From an uncultured Acidobacteriota bacterium (GTDB lineage Bacteria > Acidobacteriota > Thermoanaerobaculia > Multivoradales > UBA5704): a stretch of DNA of 64,000 bases. Positions 9,520-42,323 of the stretch are shown one piece after another (within the stretch, counting starts at the first letter, position 1; every line of letters begins with the position of its first letter). Below the pieces are notes generated by a model. That model did no database searches and was not told the DNA's origin. It was given only the letters and a program-made list of their open reading frames with translations. The translations under genes were made by a program, and so were the position numbers. Location: positions 1,504,001-1,568,000 of the forward strand of contig OY969474.1 in assembly GCA_963700145.1 (NCBI GenBank), read 5' to 3'.

Positions 9520-12500
9520 ATGCTGATCCACTCGCTCGTCGAGGCGCCGGCGCGCCGCGCACCCCAGGCGCCCGCCCTCGCCTTCGGCGCCGAGCGCCTC
9601 ACCTACGCCGAGCTGGAGGCGCGCGCCAACCGCTTGGCCCGCGCCCTCCGCCGCCGTGGCGTCGGTCCCGAGGCGCTGGTCGGGGTGGCCGCCGAGCGCT
9701 CCGTCGAGACGGTCGTCGCCCTCCTGGCAGTGCTCAAGGCCGGGGGCGCCTACGTGCCGCTCGACCCGAGCTACCCGAGCGAGCGGCTGGCCTTCATGTG
9801 GGGCGACGCGAGCCGCCCCCGCCCGGGAGGCGCGGCGCCGGTCCTGCTGACCCAGGAGCGGACCGCGGGCACTGTGCCGGCGCACGGCGCCCAGGTGCTG
9901 CGGCTCGACGCCGACGCCGCGCTCTGGGCGGGCGAGAGCGCCGAGCCGCTGCCGGCCGGCGAGGTTGCCCTCGACCACGACCACCTCGCCTACGTCATCT
10001 ACACTTCGGGCTCGACCGGCCGCCCCAAGGGCGTGCTGATCGCCCACCGCGGCGTCGTCAACGTGATCCGCGAGTCGGCGCGGCTGCTCGACGTCGGCCC
10101 CGAGAGCCGCGTCCTCCAGCTCGCTTCCCTCTCCTTCGACGCCTCGGTGCTGGAGATCTTCACCGCGCTCTCGACCGGCGCCTGCCTGGTGCTGACGCGG
10201 CGCGAGACCCTGCTCTCGGGCGAGGCACTGGGGCGCGAGCTGGCGGCCGAGCGCATCACCACGATCGCCATCCCGCCGAGTCTCCTGGACAAGGTGCCGG
10301 AGGGGATCGAGCTGCCGGCGCTGCGCTCGATCGTCGTCGGCGGCGAGGCCTGCTCGGCGGCCACGGCGGCGCGCTGGGCGCCGGGCCGGCGGTTCGTCAA
10401 CGCCTACGCGCCGACCGAGGCGACGATCTTCGCCACCGCGGGCGAGGTCACGGGGCTCGACGCGAGCCCGCCGGCCATCGGCGTGCCGATCGCCGAGACC
10501 GAGGTCCAGCTCCTCGGCCCGGACGGCACGCCCGTGCCGCCGGGCGAGCCGGGGGAGATCTGCCTCGGCGGCGCCGGCGTGGCGCGCGGCTACCTGCACC
10601 GGCCGGAACTGACGGCCGAGCGCTTCGTCCCGGCGGCGGGCGGCGCTCGCCTTTACCGCAGCGGCGACCTCGGGCGGCGGCGGCCGGACGGGAGCCTCGA
10701 GTTCATCGGCCGGGTGGACTTCCAGGTCAAGGTGCGCGGCTACCGCATCGAGCTGGGGGAGATCGAGGCAGTGCTCGGCGAGCACCCGGCGGTGCGCAGC
10801 GCGGTCGTCGAGGCGCGGCAGGACGGCGAGGAGAAGCGCCTGGTCGCTTACGTCGTCCCCCGCAGCGCCGCCGAGGGGTTGGTGTCGGCGCTCCGCGCCC
10901 ACCTCGCCGAGCGCCTCCCCGACTACATGGTCCCCGCGGCCTTCGTCTTCCTCGACGCGCTGCCGATGGCCGCGACCGGCAAGGTGGACCGCAAGGCGCT
11001 CCCCGCCCCCGACCGCGCGCGGCCGGCTCTCGAGACCGCCTACGCCGCGCCGTCCGGCCCCGTCGAGGAGACGCTGGCGCGGGTCTGGGGGGAGCTCCTG
11101 GGGCTCGACCGCGTTGGCGCCCGCGACAACCTCTTCGCCCTGGGCGGCCACTCGCTCCTGGTGGCGCAGATCGTCAGCCGGGTGCGCCAGGACCTCGGCG
11201 TCGAGCTGCCGATCCCGGCGGTCTTCGAGCACCCGACGATCGCGGAGCTCGCCGCCCGCATCGAGGCGGCGCGCGCCGGCGGCGGCGCGGCGGACGAGCC
11301 GGAGCTGCCGCCCGTCGAGCGGGTGCCGCGCGACCGGCCGCTCCCCCTCTCCTTCACCCAGGAGCGGGTCTGGTTCCTGAACCAGCTCTCCCCCGGCGCC
11401 ATCGCCTACAACTTCCAGTTCACCCTCCGCTTCCGCGGCCCGCTCGACCGCGCGACGCTGGCGCGCACGCTGACCGAGGTCGTCCGCCGCCACGAGGTGC
11501 TGCGCACCACCTTCCCGGCGCGGGACGGCCGCGGTGTGCAGGTCATCCACCCGCCGTTCGCCGTCGAGCTGCCGGTCGTGGACCTGACGGCGCTGCCGCC
11601 GCCCGCGCGCGAGGCGCGCGCCGAGTGCATCGTGCGGCAGGAGATTCGCCGCGGGTTCGACGTCGCGGAGCTGCCGCTGCTGCGCTGGACCCTGCTCCGC
11701 CTGGCGCCCGACGACCACCTGCTCCTTCAGGTCGAGCACCACTTCGTCCACGACGGGTGGTCCCTGGCGCTCTTCCTGCGCGAGGTCAAGGAGATCTACC
11801 GCGCCTTCGCCGCCGGGCTCCCGTCGCCGCTGCCCGAGCCGCCGATCCAGTACGCCGACTTCGCCGTCTGGCAGCGCCGCTTCCTCGACGGGCCGGTCTT
11901 GGCGCGGCAGCTCGGCTACTGGAAGGAGCGGCTGGGCGAGGACCCGCCGGTCCTCCAGATGCCGGCCGACCACCCGCGGCCGAAGGCCCATTCCTTCCGC
12001 GGCGACGCGTTGCGCGTGGACCTGCCGCACGCGCTCTACGAGGCGGTGCGCGCCTTCGGCCGGCGCAAAGGCTCGACCCTCTTCGTCACCATGCTCTCGG
12101 CCTTCGACGCCCTCCTCTACCGCATGACCGGCCAGGAGGACTTCCTGCTCGGCAGCGGTGTGGCCAACCGCCGGCTGCGCGAGACCGAGCAGATGATCGG
12201 CATGGTGGTCAACACCGTCGTCCTGCGGACACCGCTCGCCGGGGATCTGCCGTTCCGGGACCTCCTGGTGCGCGCCCGCCGCACGATGCTGGAGGCGCAC
12301 CAGCACCAGGACCTGCCGTTCGAGAAACTCGTGCAGGAGCTGCAGCCCGACCGCGACCTGTCGCGCAACCCGCTCTTCCAGGTCCTCTTCAGCTTCCACG
12401 ACGCGCCGGTGCCGGACCTCGACTTCGGCGGCGGCCTCGCCGCCGAGATCTTCGAGCGCCACAACGGCTCGGCCAAGTCGGACCTGAACGTCGTCGCCAA

Positions 12501-41546: not shown

Positions 41547-42323
41547 GTGACCGGCCCCACCCTCCGCGCCGTCCTCCTCGGCGCCAGCAACGTCACCTTC
41601 TCGCTCCCCGCCTGGGTGGCGCGGCTGCGCGGGGCCGCCAGCGGGCCGGTCGAGGTGCTTACCGCCTGCGGCAACGGCCGCTCCTACGGCATCGAGAGCC
41701 GCTTCCTCTTCCTCCGGCGGCTGCCGGGCATCCTCGACTGCGGGCTCTGGGAGGAGCTGGCGCGCCGCCCGCCGCTGCCGACCGTGGCGCTGGTTGGCGA
41801 CGTCGGCAACGACATCCTCTACGAGCAGCCGGTGGAGCGGATCGCCGGCTGGGTGGACGACTCCCTGGCGCGGCTGAGCGGGCTCGGCGCGCGCACCGTC
41901 CTCGCCACCGGCTCGCTGCCGGTGATCGAAGGTGTGGGGCCGCTCCGCTACCTCGCCATGCGCACCTTCTTCTTCCCCGGCCGCACCCTGTCCTTCGCGC
42001 CGGCGCGCGAGCGGGCGCTGGCGCTCGACGCCGCGCTGCGCCGGCTCGCCGCGGCGCGCGGCGTCCCGCTTCTCGTGCCGGAGCCTTCCTGGTACCGGGG
42101 CGATCCGATCCACCTACGGCCCTCCTGTCGCGGCCTCGCCTGCGACGCCGCGCTCGCCGCCTGGGGGCTGCCCTGCCGGACGCCGGCGCCGCCCCCCGGT
42201 CCGCGCCGCCACCGCGGCCTCCCCGGCCTCCCCTTCCATCGCGAGCGCTTCTGCGGCGTGACGCTCCGCACCGCGCAGCCGGCGCACCGCTACGCCGACG
42301 GCACGAGCGTCAGCTTTTTCTAA
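41547..42323 (+). CDS. SGNH/GDSL-hydrolase-like protein
   Basis: LLGASN (block I-like), GDVGND (block III-like) and DPIH (block V-like) motifs; 15 nt after the TE stop. Confidence 0.6.
   Translation: MTGPTLRAVLLGASNVTFSLPAWVARLRGAASGPVEVLTACGNGRSYGIESRFLFLRRLPGILDCGLWEELARRPPLPTVALVGDVGNDILYEQPVERIAGWVDDSLARLSGLGARTVLATGSLPVIEGVGPLRYLAMRTFFFPGRTLSFAPARERALALDAALRRLAAARGVPLLVPEPSWYRGDPIHLRPSCRGLACDAALAAWGLPCRTPAPPPGPRRHRGLPGLPFHRERFCGVTLRTAQPAHRYADGTSVSFF

Follow-up and report, generated by a model that had tools for sequence, protein, structure and literature searches.

The present work concerns a biosynthetic gene cluster of an uncultured soil bacterium, on a stretch of 64,000 nucleotides (the window in what follows; G000:C1:1,504,001-1,568,000, where G000 is the genome of the studied stretch). 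Two nonribosomal peptide synthetase (NRPS) genes, the second of which ends in a polyketide synthase (PKS) module, are here separated by four genes, one of them coding for an exported selenoprotein. We will argue from the sequence that the cluster is real and a variant of the ureido NRPS-PKS type, and that its interest lies in a pairing found throughout a family of assembly lines, that of the selenoprotein with a cysteine-ketide (Cys-ketide) tail. Three features mark the tail: its Cys module is unmodified, a single malonyl unit extends it, and its thioesterase is of a clade dedicated to it. The exported two-domain selenoprotein accompanies this tail.

The genome is a single contig of 5.46 Mb with 71.5% GC and is 95% complete. 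Because the named close homologues of the window proteins are from Thermoanaerobaculia metagenome-assembled genomes (MAGs), the source organism is, judging from these proteins, an uncultured Acidobacteriota bacterium. The Pfam scan discussed below covered 22 window proteins, from 2 to 51 kb.

Results and Discussion

The first synthetase, NRPS1 (9520..17856, + strand), is one open frame with the order A1-T-Curea-A2-T-C-A3-T (A, adenylation; T, thiolation; C, condensation; Curea, ureido-forming condensation). Its loading A-T pair is followed by a C domain with the signature EHHFVHDG (11734..11757, +). The passages of PMC11212132 that treat this motif state that EHHxxHDG occurs in every ureido-forming C domain and is otherwise absent from the C domains of MIBiG. 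The second synthetase, NRPS2-PKS (24771..41531, +), reads C-A4-T-C-A5-T-C-A6-T-C-A7-T-KS-AT-ACP-TE (KS, ketosynthase; AT, acyltransferase; ACP, acyl carrier protein; TE, thioesterase). The KS motifs TACSTS, EAHGTG and KTNVGH and the AT motifs GHSIG and HAFHS (malonyl-type) are all present, with intact active-site motifs.

It is important to note that NRPS2 is frameshifted between ca 27.6 and 35.7 kb of the window. Aligned with the orthologue G003:C73 (4,653 residues), it shows 9-24 non-triplet insertions per kb at 28-35.7 kb and none at 36-39 kb. Since three congeneric orthologues (G003:C73, G004:C66/C46 and G001:C401) are open across the broken part, where they read Ala-Ala-Cys-KS-AT-ACP-TE, the frameshifts look like assembly errors rather than decay in the strain. 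The affected part is also the most repetitive stretch, with neighbouring modules 83.5% identical. No public sequencing run shared more than 0.11 of the sampled words with this genome, no RNA run was listed as sharing any, and the four runs compared came from contigs of other organisms.

An earlier note on this DNA, made by a model (the original prediction), had described a starter A-T, a C domain with EHHFVHDG, six further modules and a terminal KS-AT(HAFH)-ACP-TE, and had recognised no epimerisation (E), methyltransferase (MT), ketoreductase (KR), heterocyclisation (Cy) or reductase domain. Our reading of domains and motifs agrees with this layout. As to the absent domains, Pfam finds none of them on the three open stretches, and the open G003:C73 orthologue, which spans most of the broken part, has no room there for an extra domain.

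The residues were assigned from the A-domain pockets, read by hand because scripted extraction cannot be relied on for position 278 outside the Ala domains. The code of A1 is DALAVGAIFK, and the solved structures nearest to this domain are the TycA and GrsA starter domains, which we take to be Phe-specific; A1 would therefore activate a large hydrophobic or aromatic residue, probably an aromatic one. A2 and A4 share the code DAWFLGHVVK, and A3, A5 and A6 share DLFNNALTYK, which we presume to denote Leu and Ala, respectively. A7 (36018..37475, +), with the code DLYDFSLVWK, is preceded by a non-cyclising C domain and has no methyltransferase insert. The best solved matches to its pocket region are BmdB, with 7/10 residues in common, and PchE, both presumably Cys-activating, and the domain falls in the pocket and sequence clade of Cys domains. 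It is accordingly classed as Cys-type, although Asp for Asn at position 278 and Phe at 299 would also be compatible with a near Cys analogue.

We have also considered whether DLYDFSLVWK marks a special substrate, such as selenocysteine (Sec) or diaminopropionate (Dap), and this was rejected, the code being an ordinary non-Cy one in the family. In 40 loci picked from 150 listed of 387 matches, Asp-278 is the usual code behind non-cyclising C domains, while Asn or Ser stands at this position in the two A domains that follow a Cy-type motif. In the same sample, the code is often found in A domains with an insert at the place where S-methyltransferases are known.

The notion that NRPS1 and NRPS2 form one assembly line is supported by a cluster of another genus (G026:C167), as it carries both synthetases back to back: a three-module ureido NRPS is followed 3 bases later by a four-module NRPS ending in Cys-KS-AT-ACP-TE. 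The 7+1 layout is thus the same, and the genes for the DUF5916 protein, the TAP hydrolase and the selenoprotein lie upstream of the synthetases. With this order the predicted chain would be aromatic-NH-CO-NH-Leu-Ala-Leu-Ala-Ala-Cys-CH2-COOH. The Curea motif, the pocket codes and the synteny in G026 hence lend support to the ureido-capped single line with Cys at the last A domain that had been proposed originally. An MbtH domain and a DsbD membrane domain are encoded in the G000 genome.

We now consider the selenoprotein (23768..24757, +), which consists of a signal peptide, an avidin/lipocalin-like beta-barrel and a TlpA/ResA-like thioredoxin fold with the motif U-G-V-C. The frame contains a single in-frame TGA at 24359-24361, in the context LLSPT*GVC. 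Among 78 barrel-bearing readable loci (not de-duplicated), the UGA position is TGA in 58 and Cys in 20, and 62 of the best 150 representatives are CxxC relatives. The genes selA, selB, selD and tRNA-Sec are all found in G000, and selD (G000:C1:3,788,741-3,789,661) itself carries an in-frame TGA. The alignment of UGA with Cys in homologues, together with the Sec machinery genes, bears out the earlier selenoprotein call; that the window protein is a true bacterial selenoprotein, with predicted Sec incorporation, is credible.

Inside the coding sequence, 3' of the UGA, lies a hairpin GCGCC-CGGGT-GGTGC (24378..24392, +) that resembles a selenocysteine insertion sequence (SECIS). All 51/51 TGA copies that encode SARVV here use AGC GCC CG(G/T) GTG GTG, thereby departing from the codon usage of the genome for both Arg (CGC 61%) and Val (GTC 57%). 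The five-pair hairpin is kept in 20/20 aligned copies (100/100 cells pair), yet no compensatory double-sided change is seen. It is not the minimum-energy fold of the window sequence, and 3/4 Cys copies with SARVV keep the same codons. A search of the window against Rfam gave no match.

The AlphaFold2 (AF2) model of the selenoprotein has a pLDDT of 94.9. In structure comparisons this model reaches a Z score of 12.5 with ResA (126 residues, rmsd 2.6) and of ~11 with small barrels. Its closest folds are those of thiol-disulfide oxidoreductases of the ResA and TlpA kind, and the small-barrel domain resembles one in the pyoverdine enzyme PvdP. No family of Pfam or NCBIfam matches the protein, a PDB profile search gave weak glutaredoxin-like matches at best, and a search of the ESM Atlas with the barrel returned sub-threshold leads only. 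When the part after the UGA was used as query, all 34 homologues returned were pieces of 122-143 residues. Annotation pipelines split the selenoprotein into two hypothetical genes at the UGA, and for this reason its link to NRPS-PKS clusters has been invisible so far.

A few side observations can be added here. A 21-bp tandem repeat with 11.3 copies (window 23445-23682) lies between the TAP hydrolase and the selenoprotein, and repeats with a seven-residue period occur near related clusters in G027. Distant barrel-less thioredoxin-like homologues form a wider family, mostly UGA-containing and unrelated to NRPS; those in L071, L076, L177 and P0179 occur as tandem copies, one of them fused to a heavy-metal-associated domain.

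The pairing was examined over 159 fetched selenoprotein loci, 145 of them distinct, with NRPS/PKS genes scored within 5 kb. For homologues that have the barrel and at least 50% identity, NRPS/PKS is found in 50/61 loci, and 10 of the 11 without it are short contigs; if only loci with 5 kb on both sides are counted, the figure is 21/22. Below 50% identity it is 1/5 for barrel-bearing and 1/19 for barrel-less homologues. Both copies in G000 lie at most 14 bases from an NRPS-PKS ending in Cys-T-KS-AT-ACP-TE.

The same pattern emerges at the genome level. A selenoprotein match at E 1e-50 or better is present in 18 of 92 family genomes, and all 18 carry a Cys-ketide line or the TE clade (17 by a Cys-type TE match, six of these from the TE match pattern and not from the A domain, and G010 by annotation). 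The copy numbers of selenoprotein and Cys-ketide line are often equal, with 2/2 in G000, 3/3 in G004, 2/2 in G027 and 2/2 in G104. Weaker matches in G073, G038 and G048 (the last by position only) extend the pairing to two more families, and some copies adjoin Cys-containing lines that lack a terminal PKS.

The second line of G000 (G000:C1:2,951,004-2,974,721; L026, L027) consists of a DUF5916 gene, a selenoprotein gene and a C-starting five-module NRPS of 6,711 residues that ends in Cys-KS-AT-ACP-TE. No Curea/EHHxxHDG domain is present in this selenoprotein-linked line (G000 2,954,586). Its orthologue in G004:C58 has one module more. Conversely, a ureido-capped line of G000 that ends in a Ser-ketide (421,167-457,183) has no selenoprotein. 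Because of these two cases, the ureido cap is not a constant feature, and it is the Cys-ketide tail that, on sequence grounds, defines the family of assembly lines.

The thioesterase (40869..41528, +; motifs HQVGG, ASMGG, D-T-P-C and H) belongs to a clade specific for Cys-ketides. A DxPC motif after the catalytic Asp is found in 16/17 lines with a Cys-type last A domain and in 0/6 KS-AT-ACP-TE lines with another last residue; the extra TE Cys is seen in Cys-ketide lines only, and the TE of the second G000 line reads DTPR at this site. Among the TE relatives with at least 43% identity, those that are named all have the names of Thermoanaerobaculia/Acidobacteriota MAGs. In the DNA read around five Ser-ketide lines (G000, two in G002, G102 and G010) no selenoprotein is found, and G002, with its two Ser-ketide lines, has no selenoprotein match in the whole genome.

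It could be argued that the selenoprotein and the hydrolases are general periplasmic proteins that were inherited with one ancestral cluster and do nothing to the product. With three exceptions, the NRPS-linked copies do fall in one supported clade, and the TAP and DUF5916 genes have several unlinked paralogues. However, the link holds for many kinds of module set, in either gene order and in fused genes, and it spans at least three of the order's families. Together with the absence of the selenoprotein from the sister Ser-ketide lines, this makes mere co-inheritance very improbable. Some action of the selenoprotein on the product is, on the other hand, highly probable.

The constant tail also invites the idea that a thiolactone-closed peptide serves as a strain-specific signal, which the periplasmic proteins would open, reduce or reset. 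The peptides seen vary in length from 3 to 7 residues, single genomes carry several lines, the sister TEs act on Ser-ketides, which likewise have a beta-nucleophile, and the ureido pseudovibriamides are described in part of PMC12426817 as modulating motility. Since the clusters share no conserved receptor or regulator and the adjoining Ser/Thr kinase is a backbone gene, we consider such a role improbable.

Some further features of the Ser-ketide and short ureido lines deserve mention. Three of four Ser-ketide lines (G000:C1:421,167-459,084, G002:C10 and G102:C60) are directly followed by an exported protein of ca 580 residues, similar in all three, with an RRQFL-type leader; its G002 copy has no Pfam match, and the protein may be the Ser-line counterpart of the selenoprotein. 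In L230 (G027:C52), L036 and L272, the starter A domains of short ureido lines (Ser-/Cys-type) hold an inserted FkbM-family methyltransferase, and some of the short lines thus have Cys-type domains at both ends. A third Curea-type domain of G000 (EHHFLHDG) is located in an NRPS-PKS cluster at G000:C1:557,591-562,678, with two genes that by eye resemble aromatic amino acid ammonia-lyases/aminomutases. In G023:C3:3,105,817-3,115,641 (L278) and in L051, L054 and L136, a CxxC version of the selenoprotein stands directly upstream of a PKS of the type AMP-ligase-ACP-KS-AT-DH-KR-ACP, with an embedded LPG_synthase_C (DH, dehydratase).

The other three genes between the synthetases, whose signal peptides like that of the selenoprotein were judged by eye, code for an exported amidohydrolase (17853..19427, +), a DUF5916 protein (19428..21677, -) and a TAP-like alpha/beta hydrolase (21769..23328, +). 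The amidohydrolase (PF01979) is carboxypeptidase/dipeptidase-like, with weak PDB matches to peptidase-type amidohydrolases. The DUF5916 protein has, by Pfam and an AF2 model with pLDDT 89.5, a CBM9-like domain and a large outer-membrane beta-barrel of ca 24 strands by DSSP, with Z scores of 19.0 against a CBM9-like protein and 17.5 against the barrel of the Mtr complex; at least 8 paralogues occur in G000. The TAP-like hydrolase (S33, Hip1-like) has a lipobox-like N-terminus and the catalytic motifs GHSYG, D and H.

In G004 the gene after the amidohydrolase codes for another selenoprotein; next comes a complete synthetase of 4,084 residues, A-T-Curea-A-T-C-A[Cys]-T-KS-AT-ACP-TE, and only after it DUF5916. 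In G003 the end of such a nested NRPS-PKS gene is found at the same place. The 13.3 kb that run from the stop of the amidohydrolase to that of DUF5916 are missing from the window, and a third copy of the line was not found elsewhere in G000. The amidohydrolase therefore most likely belongs with a line that is absent from the window assembly. The four exported proteins that the original prediction placed between the synthetases are present, and extracytoplasmic processing or protection still fits them, whereas their being one functional set does not stand.

The partner genes were counted in 43 core loci with upstream room and in 43 other loci. In the core loci, the TAP-like hydrolase occurs 12 times, the amidohydrolase 10 times, never both, and DUF5916 13 times; the corresponding numbers in the other loci are 2, 0 and 1. 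DUF5916 is hence a recurrent, non-obligatory partner. Fusions of TAP with the selenoprotein occur in G027:C126, G104:C63, P0121 and P0195, and with reverse order in P0240, while G027 and G104 also have fusions of the amidohydrolase with the selenoprotein. A gene of the major facilitator superfamily (MFS) stands beside the cluster in G026, G009, G010 and G027; in G000 the closest match to it (62%) lies elsewhere, adjoining another DUF5916 gene.

These partners could also be explained by self-protection only. The product would then be final on release, the selenoprotein would clear adducts from periplasmic thiols of the producer, and the hydrolase-like proteins would destroy or sequester the product. 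In the amidohydrolase a Tyr replaces the first metal-binding His, with DLY[GA]x in 12/12 NRPS-linked copies versus DMHGH in a stand-alone paralogue, and this protein may be a non-catalytic binder or a resistant copy of the target. The loss of the first metal ligand in all 12, the interchangeable hydrolase partners, never together in the 43 loci, and the ureido terminus, which according to part of PMC12426817 marks carboxypeptidase inhibitors such as namalide, are consistent with this explanation. The TAP hydrolase, however, keeps its full catalytic set, and the extra Cys of the TE suggests that thiol handling is built into the biosynthesis; we therefore regard protection as the sole function as unlikely, though to be taken seriously.

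Another option considered was a siderophore-like uptake and recycling, in which the thiol peptide, once secreted, would take up a soft metal (Cu, Zn) and come back via the DUF5916 barrel, the selenoprotein and hydrolase then freeing the cargo by redox change and cleavage. A thiol together with a beta-dicarbonyl could chelate a metal, the outer-membrane barrel is large and has a CBM9-like binding domain, and the small-barrel domain resembles the one in PvdP. One Cys on an Ala/Leu chain would, on the other hand, be a poor chelator, the barrel stands beside only 13/43 core loci and has many unlinked paralogues, and the annotated clusters showed neither a TonB receptor nor a metal regulator, so that this scenario is unlikely.

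Returning to a peptide that is matured in the periplasm, we take the observed architecture, UGA conservation, folds, gene coupling and fusions as the basis, and propose the residues, the release chemistry, the direction of the reductase, the transport and the target as follows. NRPS1 would join an aromatic amino acid to Leu via a urea and add Ala, after which NRPS2 would add Leu-Ala-Ala-Cys and the PKS one malonyl unit. The Cys-ketide-specific TE would release the chain, either as a beta-keto acid that loses CO2 to give a cysteinyl methyl ketone, or ring-closed as a six-membered thiolactone or a tetramate. For the methyl ketone, threopeptin offers a precedent, a Curea NRPS with one PKS module there leading to a decarboxylated ketone (PMC11212132).

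The product, with a free or latent thiol, would be exported to the periplasm, where the selenoprotein is proposed to bind it in the barrel and to reduce its disulfides (dimer or adducts) with U-x-x-C. The partner hydrolase would trim or uncap the peptide, and the DUF5916 barrel would pass it across the outer membrane. The role is most likely that of a thiol/ketone-armed inhibitor of extracellular proteases; the ureido cap, the hydrophobic chain and the thiol/ketone end are what make it fit a protease inhibitor, an assignment made by analogy.

Several points weigh against this model. The substrate calls rest on pocket codes. The family genomes are kin and overlap the locus set, so that the counts given above are not independent. 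The Cys code by itself is no predictor, most of the 40 sampled Cys-type modules being internal or with an insert and having no selenoprotein nearby. The close homologue L057 stands alone, as does G035:C55, and the CxxC subclade L051, L054 and L136 flanks a PKS with no Cys module seen. Either hydrolase is found in only 22/43 core loci and the barrel in only 13/43, and there is no transporter inside the window cluster.

Taken as a whole, we give somewhat better than even odds to the model of a thiol-armed peptide that is trimmed, and has its thiol state set, in the periplasm and that probably inhibits proteases. A bolder version, which we put forward as a tentative possibility, is a widespread family of cysteinyl-ketide peptides in soil and marine Thermoanaerobaculia in which the dedicated TE forms a sulfur warhead of a new kind, for instance a 5-amino-thiopyran-2,4-dione thiolactone, and the periplasmic selenoenzyme, with the hydrolase, arms it. 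It is extremely improbable that selenium enters the product itself.

As for the remaining genes, the SGNH-like gene (41547-42323), the last one within the coordinates of the original prediction, belongs to the backbone: it is a single copy in 62/92 genomes, stands beside 0/86 selenoprotein loci and occurs without NRPS in G002. The proximity of a TAP paralogue to selD was likewise rejected as a signal, being an ordinary neighbourhood. Exported-looking proteins without a Pfam match are encoded at window 8351-9415 (-), 49852-50616 (-) and 50679-51515 (-), the last two being 71% alike at the DNA level.

If the link is functional, selenoenzymes join the maturation of, or the resistance to, natural products, and if the selenoenzyme indeed arms the peptide, a Sec enzyme would be a standing catalytic step of an NRPS-PKS pathway. 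The combination of Cys-KS-AT-ACP, a DxPC thioesterase and a UxxC protein would provide a three-part marker with which a whole family of compounds could be mined in a lineage that is abundant and uncultured. Short members, with three residues and a single gene, are of a size suited to expression, and the predicted peptides are accessible to synthesis, which makes the claim directly testable.

Comparison with Known Systems

Enzymes that set the thiol/disulfide state of a product, for maturation or self-protection, are encoded in other clusters as well. DepH of FK228, HlmI of holomycin, GliT of gliotoxin and Ecm17 of echinomycin are cytoplasmic FAD-dependent, thioredoxin-reductase-like oxidases that act on two thiols, in contrast to the exported Sec protein considered here, which combines a thioredoxin fold with a ligand barrel and whose product would have one Cys. 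Extracytoplasmic hydrolases in NRPS-PKS clusters are represented by ClbP and XcnG, periplasmic membrane peptidases of the beta-lactamase fold that activate prodrugs by removing an N-acyl-D-Asn; here an amidohydrolase or an alpha/beta hydrolase of the S33 type takes this place, and the peptide has a urea cap. With the extracytoplasmic thioredoxins TlpA, ResA and DsbE the selenoprotein shares the fold and the position of the redox motif, but it differs in its 11-18% identity, the Sec as first motif residue, the added beta-barrel and the tight NRPS-PKS linkage. The anabaenopeptin type, which we take to have an epimerised Lys at position 2, a lactam macrocycle and no PKS, is set apart from the window line by the Leu-type A2, the lack of an E domain and the presence of a PKS.

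The closest likeness is to the sna cluster of Stackebrandtia nassauensis, which makes threopeptin, a proposed protease inhibitor (PMC11212132, in its sections on this cluster). Both have the A-T-Curea-A-T start with EHHxxHDG, one KS-AT-T module and a predicted TE release followed by decarboxylation to a ketone. According to the same sections, threopeptin has two Arg, a methylmalonyl unit, a stand-alone TE, an acyl-CoA dehydrogenase that makes an enone, and a PEARL; the present line incorporates seven residues, the last of them Cys, its TE is fused and belongs to a separate clade, an exported selenoprotein and hydrolase accompany it, and Pfam finds neither an acyl-CoA dehydrogenase nor a PEARL gene among the 22 proteins scanned. 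The epoxyketone clusters (epoxomicin, eponemycin, macyranone), as outlined in that source, also have an NRPS with a single PKS module at its end, from which a TE releases a beta-keto acid. They require, however, an EpnF-type flavoprotein and have no Cys tail, unlike the Cys-tailed window line; no EpnF-like flavoprotein was found by Pfam in the window, and none was seen in the related clusters, annotated by similarity to window proteins and by eye.

An N-terminal ureido bond made by the first C domain is shared with the pseudovibriamides B, which are peptide/polyketide hybrids, the pseudobulbiferamides, bulbiferamides, anabaenopeptins and namalides (PMC12426817). These have other residues and another release, and the parts of that paper that describe them mention no terminal Cys-ketide or selenoprotein. 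In the literature searched, which covers few subscription journals, we found no selenoprotein or Cys-ketide tail in such clusters, and nothing relevant on the pocket codes, on thiolactone/thiopyran NRPS-PKS products or on DUF5916. By its Curea domain the window system is thus, on sequence evidence, a member of the ureido NRPS group that stands outside the threopeptin, epoxyketone and anabaenopeptin types, and the near-constant pairing of such lines with an exported selenoprotein points, in a comparison made against the literature rather than against MIBiG, to an undescribed family of thiol-bearing natural products.

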